Positions 173 through 60,625 of a DNA stretch of 64,000 bases are shown here, piece after piece. The notes below the pieces were generated by a model that saw nothing but the letters and a program-made list of their open reading frames with translations, was not told where the DNA came from and did no database searches. Positions within the stretch are counted from its first letter, which is position 1. Every line of letters begins with the position of its first letter. The stretch comes from a phage, in sequence record PZ496581.1. The stretch is one strand, 5' to 3'. A program made the translations under genes and the position numbers.

Positions 173-636
173 AAAGAGTCTCTTAATAGGTTTAACACGT
201 CAATAAATTCATCTTCAGTTAGTATTGTATCATCTTTTGTTAGGTGGCTGGCCATGCTGTGCTTCAAAATTTTTCCTTTAGAGGCTTGTAAGGCATCACG
301 AAACCCCTTGTTTTGGATCGCGGCTTCAAAATATGCATTTGTGTATAATTCTTTCCACGCTTCGGAGTATCTTGAAAATGGAACTCCTAACCAGAAGAGA
401 GTCCCACTGTCCTGAGCTCTTGCGTAAGACCTTCCAGCTTGCTGTGCAGCCAATCCAGACAACCCAAATATACGTCTTTGTTGTTCAACATTTTTCACCT
501 TACATCCTTGGAGAAATCCTTCAAGACCTCCGAATTGAATACCATCCATAACAAAAGGCCATTGAGCAAAGTTACTTAATGCACATGACGGCCATTTGAA
601 ATTACTTCTTATTTCTAATTCAGACATCTTTAACAC
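169..636 (-). CDS. Hypothetical early protein (155 aa)
   Basis: Track ORF on the early-gene strand, tightly packed with neighbours; no motif recognised. Confidence 0.5.
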   Translation of the reverse strand: MLKMSELEIRSNFKWPSCALSNFAQWPFVMDGIQFGGLEGFLQGCKVKNVEQQRRIFGLSGLAAQQAGRSYARAQDSGTLFWLGVPFSRYSEAWKELYTNAYFEAAIQNKGFRDALQASKGKILKHSMASHLTKDDTILTEDEFIDVLNLLRDSL

Positions 637-15176: not shown

Positions 15177-15488
15177 TTATACCGCCATTTTAGCTTTGAT
15201 AGTTGGATGAGATTCGTAATTTTTAAGAACGAAATCAGAATGTGTCATCGTTCCAGTAACCCAGTCCATTTGGATTTTTGTAGGCCAATTCTCAAAATTA
15301 CTAGGCCAATTAATTTCAAGAGAACATAATTCTTTAGGTTCACGACGAAGAACTTCTTTGCATTGTTCTACATGATTGCTGTAGATATGCGTGTTGCCGC
15401 CTGAGAACACTAAATCACCTGGGATAAGGTTACACATCTTCGCTACAATATGCGTCAAGGCAGCGTACGAGGCAATGTTGAACGGCAG
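15177..15488 (-). CDS. td: Thymidylate synthase, exon 2 (103 codons plus stop)
   Basis: LPFNIASYAALTHIVAKMCNLIPGDLVFSGGNTHIY is the TS C-terminal core; exon begins CUG CCG UUC immediately after the intron-terminal ...AUG. Confidence 0.8.
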   Translation of the reverse strand: MPFNIASYAALTHIVAKMCNLIPGDLVFSGGNTHIYSNHVEQCKEVLRREPKELCSLEINWPSNFENWPTKIQMDWVTGTMTHSDFVLKNYESHPTIKAKMAV

Positions 15489-16504
15489 CATTATGTTCAG
15501 ATAAGGTCGTTAATCTTATCCCGGAATTATATCCAGCTGCATGTCACCATGCAGAGCAGACTATATCTCCAACTTGTTAAAGCAAGTTGTCTATCGTTTC
15601 GAGTCACTTGACCCTACTCCCTAAAGGGATAGTCGTTAGGCATTTATGTAGAACCAATTCCACTTATCAGATTTTACACGGTAAGTAACTAATCCTGATG
15701 AAATTTCAAAATGTCTAGCCGCATCGGCTGCACATTCAAAAATAATCCCATCGCATGAAATCTTTTTGATGTTAGCTGGCTTTTTGCCTTTCATCTTTTC
15801 AGATAGTTTAGTTTTAGTTTTTTCTGAATGTTTGTGATTAAAGAACGGGTTATTTTCACCTGAACGTTTTCGGCACTTTCCACAAGTATCGGCCGAAGAT
15901 GGTATGCGAACACCGCATTTACAAAACTTGTGGTTTTCTGGATTCCATCGGCCATTTTTACTTCCGTGTTTACCATAAAGAGCTTTCCGACCATCAGGAC
16001 CAAGCTTAAGCATCTTAGCTTTAACAGTTTCAGCTCGTTTCTTAGCAATTTCTTCTTTTAATGGATGATTTGAAAGCACATCGCCAAAAGACGCATCAGC
16101 AATATTATATCCATTAATTTTAGAATTTAGCTCTTTAATCCAAAAATTTTCTCGTTCAATAATCAAATCTTTCTCATATGGAATTTCTTCCAGTACAGAG
16201 CATTCAAAAACATTACCATGTTTATTAAAAGACCTTTGAAATTTTATAGAAGAGTGAACACCGTTTTCAAGGTCTTTAAAATGTCTCTTCCATCTTTTCT
16301 CAAAATCTTTAGCACTTCCAACATACACTTTACCGTTTAAAGTGTTTTTAATCTGATAAATTCCGCTTTTCATAAACACCTCTTTTTATATAGAAGTATT
16401 TATTAAAGGGTAGTCCTACAATTTAGCACGGGATTGTCTACTAGAGAGGTCCCCCGTTTAGATAGATTACAAGTATAAGTCACCTTATACCTAGGCCTAA
16501 ATTA
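15489..16504 (-). mobile_element. Group I self-splicing intron in td (1016 nt) carrying a homing-endonuclease ORF
   Basis: Intron 5' end UAAUUUAGGCCUAGGUAUAAGGUGACUUAUACUUGUAAUCUAUCUAAACGGGG closely matches the remembered T4 td intron; exon 1 ends GGU; length matches T4. Confidence 0.8.
15636..16373 (-). CDS. GIY-YIG homing endonuclease I-TevI (245 aa)
   Basis: MKSGIYQIKNTLNGKVYVGSAKDFEKRWKRH... plus C-terminal zinc finger CKCG...CGKC; near-identical to remembered I-TevI. Confidence 0.9.
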   Translation of the reverse strand: MKSGIYQIKNTLNGKVYVGSAKDFEKRWKRHFKDLENGVHSSIKFQRSFNKHGNVFECSVLEEIPYEKDLIIERENFWIKELNSKINGYNIADASFGDVLSNHPLKEEIAKKRAETVKAKMLKLGPDGRKALYGKHGSKNGRWNPENHKFCKCGVRIPSSADTCGKCRKRSGENNPFFNHKHSEKTKTKLSEKMKGKKPANIKKISCDGIIFECAADAARHFEISSGLVTYRVKSDKWNWFYINA

Positions 16505-17878
<1,374 letters not shown>

Positions 17879-31465: not shown

Positions 31466-31476
31466 GGAGGTATATT

Positions 31477-40162: not shown

Positions 40163-42378
40163 TTATTTGGCCGCTTCCACGGCCTTCATGAATTTAACGA
40201 TTTGAGCGACCTGTTCTTTGGAAAGAGTACCACGTCGTCCCATGTATTCTGACACAATATGATAATTGGTTTCGAATTCAATAACCATTTTATCATCATT
40301 ATCGTAAGCATTATCTTTAAGCTTATCGAAAATTTTAGCGCACAATTCTAACTTCCTGTTCAGGTCTCTGTTATCAGCACCTGCGAATCGATTCCATCCC
40401 CAGCGATTATTTACTGTTGAGAGTTTTGCAAAGTCTTTACTGATTTCTTTGTTCTTAGAGCTAAAATACTTACTAAGGAAGTTAAGCTCTTCGTTACGAG
40501 TAATATGATTCAAATAAGGCTGTGCTCTACGACTTGGTGATACATACTCATCATAATCCACTTTATCAATTAGCGTAATATAGTCGTTAATTGATTTTTC
40601 GAACAAGCATTCTACTTCACCAAGTTTACGAACTTTCTTAGCAATCTGTGGACGGACTACAGTGAACTCTTTAATACCTGACAAATCAGCAATACGGGTC
40701 AAGAAATTGGAGTCATAGTTCAACCAACCTTTATCTGCGTCAAGACATTCAGCATTAGAACGATTACGAACTATAGCATAACCTTGGATTTCATCAGCTT
40801 CACTCGCTGGAATAAAGAGATCTTCCGATACCCAAACATCGTTTTCGTTCTTGAAGAAACGATGGGCACTCGGTGATTTAGGGCGAGGCCCATTAGAACG
40901 AGTCTTGACTTCAATCCATGGCTTAACGATTTGTAAAAGCTCTGAAGTCTTGTACATGTTAATGTTGTCGCCATCAAAGATAACTTTAAGGCGTTCCAGA
41001 AGTTTCATTGCATCTTCGTCTGTAGGGTCAACGAATAGTACGCTTTTACCAAAACCGCGTGGAACTTTACCGGTTAATTTAACCTCGTCTTTAGACATTT
41101 CAATTGAATTAAGAGCTCGCATTAATGGAACGCGTCCCTTAACGTCGTCAATAACAATTTCAACGTTTTTAATGTTAATGCCAATCAGGCTATTAATTGA
41201 AATGGTTGTTGATGAGCTACCACTTTCACGAATACGACGAAGACGAGGGGATTCAACGATATCGTATACGACGCCAAGATTACACCACTCAGGCCCCATT
41301 TTAAAACGTTTGTACAACTCGGAATAAGTTAGTTGTTCTTTAGAGTATTTCAGTGATTCAATATTAGACCCGGCCTTTTCCATGTATTTACGAGCGGTAT
41401 AGCCAAGAGAATCAATTTCACGGAACACATGACGTGGGTATTTACAATCAATCCATTTCTTAGAATCTTCAGCGAACAATTTAGCATCGATTTCTGCAAC
41501 ACGTTTATGGATATTTGCTACTGTACGTTTATCAAATGACAATGCTTCACGAGACGGGGCTACATCTAGTTCACCCATAGGGAATTTAATATAAGCTGTA
41601 GTGCATCGCGTCATCATCCATGTTTGTTCTTTAATAACACTTCCGATTGGATATACAATACCACCATAAACAGCCATGATATTACCACGTTCACCCCATG
41701 GAGCTTCCTTGGCCAAATATACATCGTCAAATTCAGGAAAGTATTTAATATCTTTAACACCACGAACTTCTGCAATATCACCTAGAGGACGCATAACATA
41801 TGCAATTTCAGATGCGAACTTTTCAAAATCTTCTGGGTTAACCGGTACAACTACTTCTACACCCGTACGGTCATCGGGGCCCATCTTATCTACAAAGGTT
41901 GGCTTAATTTGTGGACCTGTGTCATCTTGGTAGATTACGTAACCACGAACTTCACCGTTGTGATAAGACGTAAGGTTAAACGTATCGGTATATGCTAGTG
42001 GAGCTTTAGAGCCGAGTCCGAATCCACCAATGAAATCGTTACTCGATGTTTTAGTTGAAGCAAAATATGAGTTATAGATTCCTGGCTCTTCGTCATTACC
42101 TCGAATGGTGAAATCACTCATACCAGGACCAAAGTCTCGAACTACAAAACGCGGGTCTAAACGACCTGGAGCCTGAACAATAAACTTATCAGTGCAACCA
42201 TTAAGAATTTGTCCATCGATACAGTTTGTGATTAATTCACGTACACAAGCCAATTCTTTGTTTGTATAAAGGTCTCATTAGACAAAATCTTATAAACTTT
42301 GCTATTGCCTTGAATAGTGAATGCTGTGCTCTTACCGCCTGAACCAATAATTGTTTCTTTAGCCGTTTCAATAATCAT
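40163..42378 (-). pseudogene. rIIA: rIIA with broken reading frame: 48-codon N-terminal ORF (42232..42378) plus 696-codon remainder (40163..42253) in another frame
   Basis: N-terminus MIIETAKETIIGSGGKS...KILSN then frame break at gaga (plus tctc 42273..42276); the downstream frame reads DLYTNKELACVRELITN...DFGPGMSDF...GGFGLGSK (GHKL-like). Confidence 0.6.
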
Positions 42379-43811: not shown

Positions 43812-43827
43812 AGCTCCCGAAGGAGCT
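43812..43827 (-). terminator. UUCG-tetraloop hairpin at the 3' end of gene 39
   Basis: agctcc-cgaa-ggagct. Confidence 0.35.
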
Positions 43828-45644
43828 TAGGACATCCATTCTTTACGAAGTTCTGAATCATCACCCATCAACATTTCAAAGAGTTCTTTCCAATTTTCAG
43901 GAAGTTTAACTACGTCGTACACAGGGTTCTGAATCATTTCACGATATTCTGACTTTTCAAGGGAGCCTAATCCCTTGATGTATCGAATACTATGCTTAGG
44001 CAGTGTATCTTTAACTTCTTCATACTCAGCTACAGTATAAAACCATTTTTGAGTTTTGCCAATTTGTGCAATAATTACAGGCGTTTTAACAAAGCGAATA
44101 CGTCCTTGTTCAAACAATTCAGGCCAATTACTAAAGAAAGCAAGCAAAGCCGGATAGATACTTCCAAGACCGTCGTGATCTGCATCAGTCATAATTGCAA
44201 TATTACGATAGTTCGTATTCTCTGCCTTTTCACCAAGAATAAGACCTGTGATAGCACAGATATCAAAGAGCTCTTTGTTCTTCATCATATCAGCATATGA
44301 CATACCCCAGCTATTCATCACCTTACCACGTAATGGGAATCCGCCGTGTAGTTCACGGTCACGAACATCAATGAGATAACCAATTGCCGAATCACCTTCT
44401 GTTAAAAACAATGTCGTATCTGCATCTTTACCACATTGGTTAGCTTTAATATGCTTATGAACCTTAGCTTTAGTCGCCTTTTTAGCTGCTTTAGTTTCTG
44501 CAGCCTTTTCTGCTGCCAATTTACGAGCTAATGCTGCTTCAACAATAGGCATAATCAAGGCTTCGTTTTTAAGAAGTGCCTGAGCAATTTTCTTAGCATC
44601 TAATTGGATATGATTACGAATATCACCATACGTTGACGTTAAACGTTCTTTAGTCTGAGAATCAAAACGCATGTTGCTCATGTCTCTAATAAACATCAAC
44701 ATTGTGAGGCATTCTTTAACACGAGCTTTAGTGACTTCAATACCCTTATATTTCTTTTTAATACCCGGCAAAAGATGTTCACAGATATCATCCATTACAC
44801 ATTCAACATGATGGCCACCATTTTTAGTATGGATGTTATTCACATAAGTTAAATGACGGAAGCCATCTGGTGATGTTGTGAATGCTATAGAGACTTTATC
44901 ATTTTCTTGAATGATGTTATCTTCACCGAATTGTTTAGCAAATCGTTTAAAATTACCATCAACCTTTTTACCATTAAATGTGAACTTGATATCAGGATAA
45001 ACGACTGCCAATGTTTGAAGTCGGTCTAAAGTAATATCTAAATAAATTTGAGATAAATTATGCTCTTCAAATGAAGTGAAATCAGGAGTGAAGATTACTT
45101 TAGTGCCTTTACCTTTAGATTTCTTAGAAGACCATGATTTGTTTTCCATTCCGTTTGAACAGTTAACAGTGATTTCATTTTCGCCATCTGATGTGATGCC
45201 TGTAAACAACGTAGAGAAGATATTAGTTAAACTACTCCCGACGCCGTTCATACCACCAGTCTTGCGTTCAGAGTCATCACCAAAGTTACCACCAGCCTTT
45301 GGAATAGTCCAGGCTGCTACAGGCCCAGGAATTTGTTCACCCGTTTGGTCGGTAACTAAACCTTGAGGAATACCACGTCCGTTATCTTCCACCGAAACTT
45401 GATTATTTTTAATTTGCACATCAATTTTATTTGCAAACTTAAATGATGTACGAATAGCTTCATCAACCGAGTTGTCAATAATCTCATCGATTAATTTAAC
45501 CAGGCCAGGAACATATTCAACTTGTTGATATTTACCAAACAAAAAACGCTCATGTGCTTCTTTAGCCGAAGAACCAATATACATACCACTACGTTTCTTA
45601 ATATGTTCTACATCTGACAATACCTTAATTTCATTTTTAATCAT
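43827..45644 (-). CDS. 39: gp39 DNA topoisomerase II large subunit (GyrB-like ATPase plus TOPRIM), uninterrupted 605 aa
   Basis: GHKL N-terminus with SGMYIG; TOPRIM LFLTEGDSA; one ORF covers both the T4 gene 39 and gene 60 equivalents. Confidence 0.9.
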   Translation of the reverse strand: MIKNEIKVLSDVEHIKKRSGMYIGSSAKEAHERFLFGKYQQVEYVPGLVKLIDEIIDNSVDEAIRTSFKFANKIDVQIKNNQVSVEDNGRGIPQGLVTDQTGEQIPGPVAAWTIPKAGGNFGDDSERKTGGMNGVGSSLTNIFSTLFTGITSDGENEITVNCSNGMENKSWSSKKSKGKGTKVIFTPDFTSFEEHNLSQIYLDITLDRLQTLAVVYPDIKFTFNGKKVDGNFKRFAKQFGEDNIIQENDKVSIAFTTSPDGFRHLTYVNNIHTKNGGHHVECVMDDICEHLLPGIKKKYKGIEVTKARVKECLTMLMFIRDMSNMRFDSQTKERLTSTYGDIRNHIQLDAKKIAQALLKNEALIMPIVEAALARKLAAEKAAETKAAKKATKAKVHKHIKANQCGKDADTTLFLTEGDSAIGYLIDVRDRELHGGFPLRGKVMNSWGMSYADMMKNKELFDICAITGLILGEKAENTNYRNIAIMTDADHDGLGSIYPALLAFFSNWPELFEQGRIRFVKTPVIIAQIGKTQKWFYTVAEYEEVKDTLPKHSIRYIKGLGSLEKSEYREMIQNPVYDVVKLPENWKELFEMLMGDDSELRKEWMS

Positions 45645-45694
45645 GTTGTCTCCTCGTTATGAAGGTATTCTATCATCCAAAATCTAAAGCAAAA

Positions 45695-45708
45695 AGGGCC
45701 TAAGCCCT
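45695..45708 (-). terminator. Hairpin plus U-tract upstream of gene 39
   Basis: agggc-ctaa-gccct followed by UUUUU on the minus RNA. Confidence 0.4.
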
Positions 45709-46134
45709 TATTTAAATTTAATTTTCTGAAGTGCATCAATTGCAGCCAAACGCCCTTGTTCACTTTTAACTGTAATGACCACATCGCCTGATACGATCAC
45801 CGAACCATCAACAAATTCTATAGAGCCCTTTTTTGAAATCGACAGCTGTATCTGGTTCCGGAACTTCTTCAAAGAATTTAAATTCTGCACCATAAAGCAG
45901 AATATCACCTTGCATACTATGAATAGTTCGGCCATAATCGCCTACGGCTTCTACAGCAATCATCGAAACACCGTAACCAATCATCTCTTCCACAATAAAA
46001 TCTTTGGACAATAAAGTAGTATGCAGATTAGTATTAAGACGTTTACCAGTCGTATTAAGAATTCTCAAGAAATTATCTTCCTGTCCTTTGATAATACGAT
46101 ATTTCTTACCAACTTCAAAACCTTTAAAAGCCAT
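45708..46134 (-). pseudogene. Apparent single gene (~143 aa) split into two overlapping ORFs by a frame change at a homopolymer run
   Basis: ORF 45808..46134 ends 8 codons after the A6 run (plus T6 at 45829..45834); ORF 45708..45935 carries the protein-like C-terminus GSIEFVDGSVIVSGDVVITVKSEQGRLAAIDALQKIKFK in the +1 frame. Confidence 0.4.
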
Positions 46135-46136
46135 AA

Positions 46137-46315
46137 TTAACCCTTCTTAAGTAAGTCGTAAAAACCACCGTTCACATGTTTAGGAGCAGAAACCCGACGA
46201 GTAGACAGACGATGACATTCAGGGCAAACATCGTTTTCTCGTTCAGAAATTCTTTTAATTTTTTCATATTCATGACCACAATCTTCAGATTGACATTTAT
46301 AGTCGTATAACGGCA
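46137..46315 (-). pseudogene. FmdB-like zinc-ribbon protein gene with apparent frame break at an A5 run
   Basis: N-terminus [19 protein letters not shown]; reading the run as A6 restores ...VCPECHRLSTRRVSAP...GGFY (second CxxC half); as written the frame runs into a hydrophobic tail. Confidence 0.35.
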
Positions 46316-46747
46316 TTATTGTTCCTTAAAGTGAGCTTTCAACATTTGATACAAAGACCATGCCTGGTCGTTATTTTCGATAGTAATCGTCATCACCGGA
46401 AATTCAGACAATTCGTCAAGTTCACCAGAATCTTGCTCTTTAGACTCTTGATATGGATTTCCAACTTCGTCAAAGAACTCTGCTTCATTCGTGGAGAGCC
46501 AGATAAAGTTTTCATCAAGGATATCACCGCCTGTTGCGTATCCAACCATGCCAGTAGATGTCACAATTTTAGTAGGACGACCAAGATGGTCAACATCTAA
46601 TACTTTAAATGGTTCCATGCCAAGACGTCGTGCATAAATCCCATTATCAGTGTGGTCTTTAATAAACTCTTCTTGGGCACGTTTATCTTTAAATTGGTAC
46701 CATGAGTTAACGCGGAATTTATTAGCCATTAGTAAGTTTCCTTCCAA
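46316..46747 (-). CDS. Hypothetical protein (143 aa)
   Basis: Track ORF. Confidence 0.45.
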
Positions 46748-47001
46748 TAAGTTGTACCGTTTTCAGTGATTTCACGGAAGATACCATAGATAGGCATTTC
46801 ATCGCCGAGTTTTTCGTAAACGTAAACCACTTCAGTGTAGCATAAAAATTCGGTCCAGTTTTTCTGTACAACAACTAAATCAGGATTAAACAGAACATCT
46901 TCAAACTCATCGATGTTTGAATCAGTAGTTACGTTTTTAATGATTTGACGTTTCATAATATTCTCCTCTTGTTTTGATAGGTCTATAGTATCATAGACCA
47001 T
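46729..47001 (-). CDS. Hypothetical protein (90 aa)
   Basis: Track ORF; promoter module ~46976..47010 upstream. Confidence 0.45.
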
Positions 47002-47013
47002 AGTTGTTGTACA

Positions 47014-47538
47014 TCATTTTAGCAAAATAAAATCAACTTGTTCTGCCAATGAACGTCTGAACATTGATTGACAACTTCCGAGTATGAAATCAGGTGCTTC
47101 ATAGACCGCGATGTAGTATCCTTTAGCTTTCAAGAGTTCAACATCCACCTGGTCATCAAACCATGCATAAACCGCGTCAACACTTTCAAATCCAAAATAG
47201 AACCCTTGAGCCCAATCTTCACTCAATTCAAATGTGTGCTCAATTCTATAGTATCTTAAGATATTTTGTTCAAGGAGTTTGTCTTCATTTACTGTAGGAC
47301 GATTAGGGACGTTATAGTTGTCGCCGTGATGGTAGAAATTACCTGAGATTATTCCATGTTTATCAAGGAACTCCCATGTTTCTTCAGAGTTGTCGGTGCC
47401 CGACCAACCGTATGGTGAGCGAGGTTCTTTATTCCAAGAGGTTTCCCAAATTCTGACGGCTTTACCGTCTTCGATAGCAATTCCTGGTAATGATTCACGT
47501 TGAGTACAAAAACTACGTTCTACGCGGTAAACTAACAT
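47014..47538 (-). CDS. Hypothetical protein (174 aa)
   Basis: Track ORF; its ribosome-binding site lies in the 3' arm of the promoter-embedded inverted repeat. Confidence 0.5.
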   Translation of the reverse strand: MLVYRVERSFCTQRESLPGIAIEDGKAVRIWETSWNKEPRSPYGWSGTDNSEETWEFLDKHGIISGNFYHHGDNYNVPNRPTVNEDKLLEQNILRYYRIEHTFELSEDWAQGFYFGFESVDAVYAWFDDQVDVELLKAKGYYIAVYEAPDFILGSCQSMFRRSLAEQVDFILLK

Positions 47539-47564
47539 ATTATTCTCCTCTGGTTGATATGGTT

Positions 47565-47593
47565 ATAATACCAAAACCAGAGGAGAAGTAAAC
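47565..47593 (-). promoter_or_regulatory. T4-type early promoter (-35 GTTTAC, 17 nt, -10 TATTAT) nested in a 9-bp inverted repeat that pairs with the downstream Shine-Dalgarno
   Basis: 5' arm CUCCUCUGG lies in the -35/-10 spacer; 3' arm CCAGAGGAG (47545..47553) contains the GAGGAG ribosome-binding site of 47014..47538. Confidence 0.45.
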
Positions 47594-47597
47594 AACT

Positions 47598-48017
47598 TTA
47601 TGCGAAAGCAGCTGGGCTATATTTTTTAATTTGGAATTCAGGAACTACCATGAACTGTCCAGCGAAAACGATGTTATAAAGCTTAACACCATCTTCTACC
47701 CAACGGTCGCTAATAAATCCAGCGATTTGCTTAGTTTTCCACGGTGTTCCATCAGTTGCCGCAGCAATAGTGAATTCATGGTCTTTTTCAACAGAAACTG
47801 ATCTGCATAGTCCCCATTTGAACGCTTTTTCTTCTGGTTCAATGAATTGGCTTGAGACATAACCAATGTTACCATCAGCGTCACGAACTTTAACTTCGTT
47901 ACGTCCAAAAACCGGATCACTCACAGAAAGAACTTCAACCAACTTCCCGGCAACTTTAGAGCGAGAAGCAACGGATACATATACATAATCACCTGTAGAG
48001 AGATTTACAATATTCAT
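47598..48017 (-). CDS. Hypothetical protein (139 aa), tandem paralogue of 48027..48491
   Basis: Shared blocks SRSKxAGKLVEV, FKWxLC, GFISDxWVEDGxKLYNIVF with its neighbour. Confidence 0.5.
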   Translation of the reverse strand: MNIVNLSTGDYVYVSVASRSKVAGKLVEVLSVSDPVFGRNEVKVRDADGNIGYVSSQFIEPEEKAFKWGLCRSVSVEKDHEFTIAAATDGTPWKTKQIAGFISDRWVEDGVKLYNIVFAGQFMVVPEFQIKKYSPAAFA

Positions 48018-48026
48018 AATAATTCC

Positions 48027-48491
48027 TTAAGCTTTACGAGGAGACACATAGCGAGTGATTTCAGATTCTTTAACAACTCGGAAGTCACCTAAGAATACGA
48101 TATTGTATAACTTTTCACCATCTTCAACCCATTGGTCACTAATGAAGCCACACATAGTATCAGTTTTGCTTGGATAACCGTATTCGTCGATGTAATCAAA
48201 TTCTTTATCGGTTATAAATTCAACGCCTTTGCAAAGGGCCCATTTGAACTGTGTAGTAGGCTCAACGATATCGCTTGAAGCAAAGTGGGCACTTACACGA
48301 GTTTCCAAAAATTTAGGACTTACGTAAGCGTACTGAGTTTCAGTTTTTCCAGAACTAGGAATGATTCGAACTTTAACTTCTTTAATACGGCCCATGCCAT
48401 TAGTACGAAGTCCTACTACTTCAACCAGCTTTCCTGCAGCTTTAGAACGAGACGCTGTCGATACACGTTTAATTTCACCAATATTAATCAT
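48027..48491 (-). CDS. Hypothetical protein (154 aa), tandem paralogue of 47598..48017
   Basis: See paralogue; own promoter module ~48523..48552. Confidence 0.5.
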   Translation of the reverse strand: MINIGEIKRVSTASRSKAAGKLVEVVGLRTNGMGRIKEVKVRIIPSSGKTETQYAYVSPKFLETRVSAHFASSDIVEPTTQFKWALCKGVEFITDKEFDYIDEYGYPSKTDTMCGFISDQWVEDGEKLYNIVFLGDFRVVKESEITRYVSPRKA

Positions 48492-48557
48492 ATTTTTTTC
48501 TCTCTTTGTTTAAGATAGATTCATTATACTCCAACCATCCTTGGTTGTAAACTGGTT

Positions 48558-49235
48558 TTATCGCTGTTTTACACTTAACGGGTCAGGATTCTCAGGGACA
48601 TCTTCAAGGCCAAGCGCATAACGCTGAGCATATTTTAACATCAAAATATCTTTAGCACAATCATGAATACTATCATGGGCAACGAATCCTTTTAGCGTAC
48701 CCATCGGTAATGGACACATACTTAATCCTCGTGTCAAAGAGTAAGCTTCGATTGCCGTACGAATATCACGTTGAGCCCAGAATTTAACAGGTTCTAATTT
48801 ATCAGTATCAATATCTGGTTCAAGAACACCTTCATCACGATAGAGGTCACGAATCAAATCGACCAAGATCGGGAAGTCAAAGCTCATACCACGGCACCAC
48901 ATCTGTGATTTCCATTGGTCAACTTTATTAGCTCGGCAATAGTCTAAAAAGATTTTAATGCCTTCAAGCGTAGTGACATCGTCTTCAGACGGAGCCAAGT
49001 TTTTACGCGCTTCAACCGATTGTTCTTTCCACCATTTCATAGTTGATTTAGCGAAAACTCGCTTCCCTTTCTGAGAAGCTAAATTAAATTTAATTCGCTT
49101 ACCTCGTTGAACAAGTTCTTCAAATGATTCAACAACTTCAGGGTCGGAATTATATGCAATAACCGCAAGGTCAATAACAGCCGCTTTTGATGTATTGCCG
49201 AATGTTTCAAAATCTATAATAACATCAGTGCTCAT
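48558..49235 (-). CDS. dexA: DexA 3'-5' exonuclease (DnaQ-like), 225 aa
   Basis: Exo I motif IIDFETFG; immediately downstream of dda as in T4. Confidence 0.8.
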   Translation of the reverse strand: MSTDVIIDFETFGNTSKAAVIDLAVIAYNSDPEVVESFEELVQRGKRIKFNLASQKGKRVFAKSTMKWWKEQSVEARKNLAPSEDDVTTLEGIKIFLDYCRANKVDQWKSQMWCRGMSFDFPILVDLIRDLYRDEGVLEPDIDTDKLEPVKFWAQRDIRTAIEAYSLTRGLSMCPLPMGTLKGFVAHDSIHDCAKDILMLKYAQRYALGLEDVPENPDPLSVKQR

Positions 49236-54495: not shown

Positions 54496-54561
54496 ATTGT
54501 TCTCCTCTTGAGTAAGTAAGATATCTTAACACAGTTTTTAGTGGTTGTAAACTGTAGAAAC

Positions 54562-54871: not shown

Positions 54872-55087
54872 TTATGCATATTTCTTGTCGATATAAAAAT
54901 GACCACCGCCTTTAACAAAGACCCAGAATAGATTTCTATCGTCTGTATCCCGGCAGTAAAAATCATCTAACCGGAAATAGTTTTCTTCAGGGAATTCAAG
55001 ATGTCGCCCGAGTTCTATCGCATCAGAACCGAACGCTTTAGTAGCGGGACGACCATCATCGTCCCATTTCTTGAAATTGAATTGCAT
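54872..55087 (-). CDS. Hypothetical protein (71 aa)
   Basis: Track ORF; stop overlaps the gene 56 start. Confidence 0.45.
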   Translation of the reverse strand: MQFNFKKWDDDGRPATKAFGSDAIELGRHLEFPEENYFRLDDFYCRDTDDRNLFWVFVKGGGHFYIDKKYA

Positions 55088-55608
55088 TAATAACCTCGGT
55101 CTTGGCGAGCGAAGTTTTCAGCATTCTTCAGATAATACAGTTTGAAGATTTCTTCAGCAGAAAGTCCCAGACCTTGGAACATATTTAGAACGAAATGCAG
55201 AATATCAATCATTTCAAATTTAATTTCAAGCTGGTCTTCAGGAGACAGTTCATCGATACGACGATTTCGATATTCAGCATGTTGTGCTTTCCATGGCTTC
55301 CATACAGAGCTAGCGGCTTTCTCACCATTGCTCATACCGCCAAGTGAAGTCAGCAGTTCACGGAATTCATCATCAATATAATCTTTCTGATTACGCAGCC
55401 AATCAACAACATCGCCAGCAGTAGCCAATTCATCAGGATGTTTGTTATGTTCAGGCTTGTCATTTGCCAGACGAACCTGTAAAGATTTCTGCATATCAAG
55501 CATTACCTGCAGTGGGTCTTTATCTTCGTGAATCAGAGCATTAAAATAAGCTTCTTCTGCTTTATCAACACCAGAAATAAGTTGTGAACATTCGTTAAAG
55601 TGCGCCAT
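55087..55608 (-). CDS. 56: gp56 dCTPase/dUTPase (MazG-like), ~173 aa
   Basis: MAHFNECSQLISGVDKAEEAY...DPLQVMLDMQ...EIFKLYYLKNAENFARQDRGY matches remembered T4 gp56; start moved to MAHF. Confidence 0.8.
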   Translation of the reverse strand: MAHFNECSQLISGVDKAEEAYFNALIHEDKDPLQVMLDMQKSLQVRLANDKPEHNKHPDELATAGDVVDWLRNQKDYIDDEFRELLTSLGGMSNGEKAASSVWKPWKAQHAEYRNRRIDELSPEDQLEIKFEMIDILHFVLNMFQGLGLSAEEIFKLYYLKNAENFARQDRGY

Positions 55609-59326: not shown

Positions 59327-59386
59327 TTCAATTTCCTCTGTAGTTGATAGAAAGATAGTAACACAGTATGTGGTGCTTGTAAACAG

Positions 59387-59644
59387 CTATTTTAAACTTT
59401 TGCGAAATTTGCGTTTTTCTTGACGAATCTGTCGTTTAGTCGGACGTACAGCAAATTTAACGAAGTCCACTTTGCCGTGTGGAAACTTTTCAGATGCTTC
59501 GCAGTCCATCATTAGTTCCCATCCTTCCAGAATAAGAGCTTTCCATTGTGTAGTTGATGCAAATTCGTATGTTGATGGTTTAAACACAGTTGAATACATA
59601 TTATCCTCTGAAATCAGCTTCAAAAACTTTCTCGTCATTAACAA
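59387..59644 (-). CDS. Hypothetical protein (85 aa or shorter)
   Basis: Track ORF; C-terminal basic tail. Confidence 0.4.
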   Translation of the reverse strand: MLMTRKFLKLISEDNMYSTVFKPSTYEFASTTQWKALILEGWELMMDCEASEKFPHGKVDFVKFAVRPTKRQIRQEKRKFRKSLK

Positions 59645-60618: not shown

Positions 60619-60625
60619 TTTTTTA

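Follow-up and report, generated by a model that had tools for sequence, protein, structure and literature searches.

Two overlapping reading frames next to gene 39 of an RB69-like phage are the halves of one ORF005c-family gene

Two reading frames between the zinc-ribbon gene and gene 39

The stretch of phage DNA analysed here, which we call the window, comprises 64,000 nucleotides (sequence record PZ496581.1) and belongs to a distinct isolate of Mosigvirus, the RB69-like T-even phages, with no near-clonal relative in the collection searched. A megablast search with positions 45600..46400 returned 162 phage records, nearly all of them Escherichia or Shigella Mosigvirus, at 90-99.6% identity, and the best records are about 97-98% identical to the window over 24 kb. 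The genes in this part of the window are carried by the minus strand. The features of the locus are the following:

43827..45644, minus strand: gene 39, large subunit of topoisomerase II (605 aa), from the list of open reading frames (ORFs)
45694..45709, minus strand: hairpin resembling an intrinsic terminator, AAGGGCTTAGGCCCTT and then TTTGCTTT, annotated as a terminator in relatives
45708..45827, minus strand: C-terminal remnant of the split gene in the +1 frame, Gly103 to Lys141 plus stop codon
45708..45935, minus strand: 75-aa ORF that includes this remnant
45798..45800, minus strand: in-frame GTG in the C-terminal frame, a hypothetical re-initiation start read from the sequence
45808..45810, minus strand: TGA, stop codon of the 108-aa ORF
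45808..46134, minus strand: 108-aa ORF, N-terminal fragment of the split gene, from the ORF list and alignment
45826..45828, minus strand: position of the added base; the coding strand has GGG here (CCC on the plus strand), every relative examined GG
45829..45834, minus strand: A6 run (T6 on the plus strand), codons of Lys101 and Lys102, conserved in relatives
46137..46316: 39.2 zinc-ribbon gene, by a match to the domain Zn_ribbon_8
46319..46729: the true goF gene, separate from the split gene, by a tblastn match

The position of the ORF005c gene between the 39.2 zinc-ribbon gene and gene 39 is the same in NRG-P0074, PhAPEC2, T6 and RB5, and in the window the terminator-like hairpin overlaps the last two bases of the stop codon of the split gene. 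In NRG-P0074, a homing-endonuclease gene of about 800 nt directly follows gene 39 (comparison locus L010, 20224..21017) which is absent from the window (around 43833..43838). Three short accessory segments of the window, at 48485..48560, 54875..55090 and 59364..59612, are replaced or absent in comparison with SHSML-52-1, moskry and NRG-P0074; they concern a motB-region paralogue, the soc.1/soc.2 region and small ORFs near dmd, and such differences are typical T-even mosaicism.

The 108-aa ORF ends in VDFKKGLYRIC (in full, AVDFKKGLYRIC) and is made up of residues 1-102/103 of a conserved 141-aa protein, followed by five out-of-frame residues (LYRIC). At the junction, the coding strand reads GAT TTC AAA AAA GGG CTC TAT AGA ATT TGT TGA. 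An earlier note on this DNA had the ORF run into an A6 run and stop eight codons later; it does stop soon past the run, but the run itself is two Lys codons, after which come six sense codons before the stop. What was mentioned there side by side as A6 and T6 is a single run, read on either strand. The 75-aa ORF consists of the C-terminal remnant and an overlapping out-of-frame leader. It opens with approximately 35 nonsensical residues rich in Cys and Phe and closes with KKGSIEFVDGSVIVSGDVVITVKSEQGRLAAIDALQKIKFK, so that both the implausible N-terminus and the protein-like C-terminus described before were seen again. The remnant shows 100% protein identity to the relatives.

Upon deletion of one base, the two ORFs fuse into a 426-nt ORF coding for 141 aa; a single fused protein had been anticipated, albeit with a length of about 143 aa. 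The repaired protein is 100% identical to XKC24188.1 of NRG-P0074 (tblastn E 1e-77), and its sequence occurs in a collection of 15 billion proteins. When the SHSML-52-1 orthologue was used as a tblastn query against the window, residues 1-103 matched in frame -2 (96% identity) and residues 101-141 in frame -3 (100% identity). A joint match of both pieces, in two frames, to a conserved protein at 100% identity is far beyond chance. The ORFs 45808..46134 and 45708..45935 on the minus strand are two halves of one gene with a frame break, as had been proposed from the letters, given that the fusion by a one-base deletion yields the conserved protein.

The protein family of the split gene

The split gene belongs to the family of RB69 ORF005c (NP_861695.1), which corresponds to phrog_622 and is of unknown function; the match to phrog_622 is full-length (E 1.5e-21, residues 4-141). 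Relatives annotate a single CDS of 426 nt as a hypothetical protein 'similar to RB69ORF005c'. RB69 ORF005c and the Mosigvirus orthologues, among them XKC24188.1 of NRG-P0074 and PhAPEC2_5, are the same gene at the same position (39.2 zinc-ribbon gene, this gene, terminator, gene 39), with proteins 92-100% identical to that of the window after the removal of one base. Whereas these orthologues are one intact ORF of 139-148 aa, the window has a 108-aa fragment and an out-of-frame remnant of 39 aa. The copy in the window, split by one additional nucleotide, is a disrupted member of the family. For annotation, this means that both ORFs should be recorded as one disrupted gene, a homologue of RB69 ORF005c, and not as two hypothetical proteins.

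Profile searches recovered two subfamilies only, one in Mosigvirus with members of mostly 139-148 aa and one in Tequatrovirus with members of mostly 122-124 aa, the latter being 36-47% identical to the repaired protein over 96% of its length. In Pfam, no family was found apart from a sub-threshold match to FapA (E 0.029), which we disregarded, and a search for literature on the RB69ORF005c family found nothing. In T6 and RB5, the gene is situated between 39.2 and 39.1, and the T4 genome (NC_000866) contains no gene of this family. As to the neighbouring gene, T4 39.1 (65 aa; comparison locus L007, 5398..5659) resembles an N-terminally frame-shifted version of the 86-aa 39.1 of T6 and RB5, whose protein starts with a lipoprotein-like signal, MKYINRSIAALVLAVSLVGC; residues 1-24 of T6 39.1 align in another frame just upstream of the T4 ORF.

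The best-conserved part of the family is formed by the last approximately 30 residues (SGD..TVK.E..RL..LQ.IKFK), which are missing from the 108-aa product. AlphaFold2, run on a 50-sequence alignment, gave a model of moderate quality (pLDDT 65.7) with a predicted alpha/beta N-terminal domain (block-mean pLDDT of 67-87 over residues 1-90), a linker (residues 94-119, pLDDT < 50) and a C-terminal helix (residues 125-137). The frame break after K102/G103 falls inside this predicted linker, which is deleted in the Tequatrovirus orthologues and in P0035.

A possible relationship to other early proteins was seen in several searches. Small early proteins of the GoF (comC-alpha) or MotB.1 type are similar in size and neighbouring in location, and the GoF PHROG phrog_13003 gave a weak C-terminal match, limited to residues 103-141 (E 5e-6). 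Against GoF itself, neither BLASTP (E 0.04) nor hhalign (E 0.014, probability 3%) was significant. Foldseek comparison of the query model (pLDDT 65.7) with viral models returned small T-even early proteins with E values of about 1e-4 to 5e-4 and TM scores of about 0.3-0.5; the match to the GoF model had an E value of 3.3e-4 and a TM score of 0.5, and likeness was also found to the T4 13.8 kDa protein encoded between motB and dexA (P39415) and to 'transcriptional regulator' models. Since the BLASTP and hhalign comparisons with GoF were not significant, we regard a GoF-like relationship of the ORF005c family as a hint only. There are likewise hints that the early-gene cluster on the minus strand, 45708..46134 together with 46319..48491, might be an expanded paralogous family.

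Position and uniqueness of the extra base

Where the relatives read AAAAAAGG, the window reads AAAAAAGGG, and a third G after the A6 is found in the window only. In an alignment with NRG-P0074, BEU50, PhAPEC2 and moskry, all sequences have A6, with AAAAAAGGGC in the window against AAAAAAGGC or AAAAAAGGT in the others, and all 40 matches listed for the 801-base megablast query span 800 bases. A 66-nt probe from the window, centred on the site, had an exact match in none of 158 related phage records, whereas the 65-nt version with A6GG was found exactly in 53 of them, RB69 included. Because of the A6 in the relatives and these two probe counts, the change reads as a one-base tandem duplication, GG to GGG. 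A miscount of the A run was rejected, as the alignments show A6 in the relatives and the added G in the window.

The earlier note had located the break next to a homopolymer, which was correct, and had taken the A run for the variable element, which was not: the A6 is conserved and the extra base is a G. It had also pointed out that one A fewer would restore the frame. This holds, and even the wild-type residues would be regained (AAA AAG GGC, K K G), so that the A6 run is the sole place where slippage at a low level could restore the frame; as an account of how the break arose it is wrong, the extra base being a G.

The GGG allele was absent from the viral contigs of IMG/VR, the metagenome contigs of JGI and the genome contigs of GTDB, while the wild-type pattern, used as positive control, gave three matches, in viral contigs. 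In the collection of 15 billion proteins, neither the 108-aa nor the 75-aa product was present. Among the 158 relatives, the only other length variant was found in the draft record ECCR664 (OL631257.1, comparison locus L011, 134 kb), which has A5GG instead of A6GG at the same site (approximately 401..464 of that locus). This variant is frame-breaking, and no CDS is annotated at the spot; it represents either a mistake in a record of low quality or another independent event at this place.

Mutation, sequencing error, gene fission or recoding

In order to survey the frames over the whole window, every annotated SHSML-52-1 CDS covering it was translated and compared with it by tblastn, and 105 of them gave a conserved match. 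Exactly two of these 105 are frame-broken in the window, namely the ORF005c gene and rIIA. The other flagged matches were two that extend past the ends of the window, one in an accessory segment that has been replaced, and td, which is interrupted by an insert. The features of rIIA are the following:

42232..42378, minus strand: rIIA piece
40163..42253, minus strand: rIIA piece
42273..42276: 2-nt insertion in rIIA

The insertion lies 3.5 kb from the ORF005c site and is a tandem duplication of two nucleotides (GA to GAGA) by which AATGACC on the coding strand becomes AATGAGACC. The rIIA protein stops after 48 codons, and the remaining approximately 700 codons are in another frame. A search of 155 related phage records found the duplication in none. 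On hosts that are not lysogens, rIIA is not essential. The interrupted td gene (thymidylate synthase; 15177..17053, minus strand) is broken by an insert of about 1 kb containing a 247-aa ORF (15636..16379) with GIY-YIG, I-TevI zinc-finger and I-TevI DNA-binding domains. This insert resembles the group I intron of T4 td, and an Rfam search of it gave no intron family at the gathering threshold.

We are highly confident that the locus is a single ancestral gene rather than a device for recoding, whether its break is due to mutation or to error. A non-programmed one-base insertion of this type is no new kind of feature; it reflects either a recent mutation of an ordinary sort or an error in sequencing. 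The explanation that we prefer, and to which we give an even chance, is a real and very recent frameshift mutation, not a programmed one, that struck a dispensable accessory gene of the isolate. A G would have been added to the GG after the conserved A6, as a tandem one-base duplication of the replication-slippage kind. The ribosome would then read 102 correct residues, followed by GGG CTC TAT AGA ATT TGT and a stop codon, and the resulting 108-aa product would be devoid of the most conserved module of the family at the C-terminus; a second mutation of the same kind would have affected rIIA of the same isolate. In T-even phages, short tandem duplications are the classical mark of replication slippage. 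The classical spontaneous T-even frameshifts of the Streisinger type, studied in the rII system, share with the window a short repeat with one or two bases duplicated in tandem, the ensuing frame shift and early stop, and the non-essential gene; mechanistically there is no difference between them, but the mutation in the window is known from a consensus sequence alone. A closer relative was sought by which the change could be dated, and the collections contained no near-clonal comparator. The truncated 108-aa product is probably non-functional. The ORF005c gene is probably dispensable, since T4 does without it and other broken alleles exist in nature.

Somewhat short of an even chance stands the explanation that the extra G and the 2-nt insertion in rIIA stem from base calling, the polishing of the consensus or editing, and that the phage itself has AAAAAAGG and an intact 141-aa gene. 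Sequencing error was one of the causes named in the earlier note, and it is still a live explanation: none of the collections searched contained the allele, the downstream frame is free of decay and 100% identical to the relatives, the site flanks an A6 run, and the A5 of ECCR664 at the same place shows that the spot is prone to error or to mutation. The uniqueness and the undecayed downstream frame are predicted equally by a mutation and by an error. Against an error, only two frame-breaking indels were found among the 105 matched CDSs, both in dispensable genes, and neither G2 to G3 nor GA to GAGA is a miscount of one of the longest runs, despite the presence of 49 A/T runs of at least six bases in the window; at the other 48 of these runs, no conserved gene is broken. 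In addition, the duplication of a dinucleotide is not a typical consensus error. The dispensability of both broken genes slightly favours a real mutation over an error, although this argument is weak and worth roughly a factor of three. Because of the short tandem duplications, the non-homopolymer contexts, the dispensable genes and the 48 unbroken runs, we incline slightly to a genuine mutation, in which case the additional base would be present in the phage DNA.

If both changes are real, the isolate is an rIIA frameshift mutant, with effects to be expected on lysis inhibition and on how lysogens exclude it. The rIIA frameshift would then be of greater practical consequence than the loss of the small ORF005c gene.

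The frame break in the linker has a natural counterpart in Tequatrovirus. In this split allele (P0081), found in metagenome contigs (L012, 1201..1574, and also L013-L015), a T4 run has lost one nucleotide (GATTTTGA to GATTTGA), and this deletion has led to ORFs of 94 aa and 30 aa with an ATGA stop/start overlap. Since it recurs in 13 contigs from independent samples (the four shown are from four independent samples), this allele is certainly real. In P0082 and P0083, as in P0081, the family is truncated independently. The Tequatrovirus allele and the window have in common a one-base indel in the same linker that parts the N-terminal domain from a C-terminal module of about 30 residues. The former, however, is a recurrent deletion with an ATGA overlap, whereas the latter is a unique insertion with only a nearby GTG.

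We consider it very unlikely that the window echoes this Tequatrovirus allele in being a tolerated or functional split, in which the 108-aa N-terminal domain and a 30-aa C-terminal module would both be made, the latter by termination-reinitiation at the GTG. Such a split would agree with the position of the break in a variable, predictedly disordered linker that orthologues can lose, with the independent deletion in the same linker of the Tequatrovirus contigs, and with the GTG itself, which lies in frame 7 nt past the stop of the N-terminal ORF and would give a 30-aa peptide with the conserved C-terminal module. But no evident Shine-Dalgarno sequence precedes the GTG, so that re-initiation there is speculative, the uniqueness of the allele gives no sign of selective maintenance, and the absence of the gene from T4 and the truncations in P0082 and P0083 fit simple dispensability better. 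It is likewise a long shot that the linker might be a recurrent break point, at which indels yield an N-terminal domain and a separately translated module of about 30 aa by stop/start coupling, with the window as a second independent gene fission and leakiness at the A6 adding a trace of full-length protein.

The last explanation, and in our estimate the most improbable of all, is programmed recoding, either by +1 ribosomal slippage or by an RNA polymerase that drops one A, or else an on/off switching of the tract in the population. The product of such slippage, as improbable as the recoding as a whole, would be a fused protein containing DFKKGSIEFVDGSVIVSGDVVITVK. An mRNA that is one A shorter encodes exactly the wild-type protein, the Lys codon in the P site can re-pair in the +1 frame (AAA to AAG), and the length at the A6GG spot has changed in two of 159 genomes, namely the window and ECCR664. 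The two-ORF arrangement, however, is not conserved. The relatives in Mosigvirus are single ORFs, and so are the distant orthologues in Tequatrovirus, which align end to end; of 594 records, 581 gave an alignment at a single place covering 80% or more of the protein, the full-length rows listed being single pieces. The earlier note had called for a comparison with orthologues and had named orthologues that are also two separate ORFs, together with high-quality reads confirming six residues, as the outcome that would speak against a broken gene; the orthologues proved to be single ORFs.

The site itself is also poorly equipped for recoding. Shuffled sequences fold as well as the 111 nt downstream of it (z = -0.89), and we found no stimulatory RNA structure 3' of the site and no GGAGG-like or Shine-Dalgarno-like stimulator in the sequence upstream of it. 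The A-site codon is GGG, a sense codon, and is neither a stop nor a hungry codon. The tracts at the site are only A6 and G2/G3, and they hardly vary, 53 records having the identical tract and one other variant (A5, in ECCR664) being known. Phase-variable tracts are longer than A6. Productive transcriptional slippage is known for runs of about 8-9 or more A or T (PMC1088944), and the A6 at the ORF junction is below this length. The systems to which the window bears a likeness, prfB (+1), dnaX (-1 at A AAA AAG) and the A9 runs of IS elements, likewise have two overlapping ORFs at an A-rich, slippery-looking stretch; in these, however, the arrangement is conserved and there are stimulators or runs of 8-9 or more (PMC1088944), whereas the window has in-frame orthologues, an A6 and no stimulator that we could find.

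With uninterrupted orthologues, no RNA structure downstream of the site and a tract of insufficient length, there is no support for programmed recoding. The suggestion of phase variation or genuine slippage, made in the earlier note beside that of sequencing error, finds no support on the same grounds, the tract being short and near-invariant and the two-ORF arrangement not conserved. At most, leakiness at a low level would be expected; it is conceivable that RNA polymerase occasionally drops an A or that tRNA-Lys re-pairs from AAA to AAG, with no designed mechanism behind it. We found no evidence of a new recoding mechanism.

The value of the frame break thus lies in annotation and quality control, and the site, together with the rIIA insertion, bears on any comparative or phenotypic use of the genome. 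Apart from these two genes, small intergenic indels were observed against each relative covering the respective site, at 31474 (an additional AT between ribosome binding site and start codon), at 54521 (one A fewer) and at 60619..60624 (T6 versus T5 beside a ribosome binding site).
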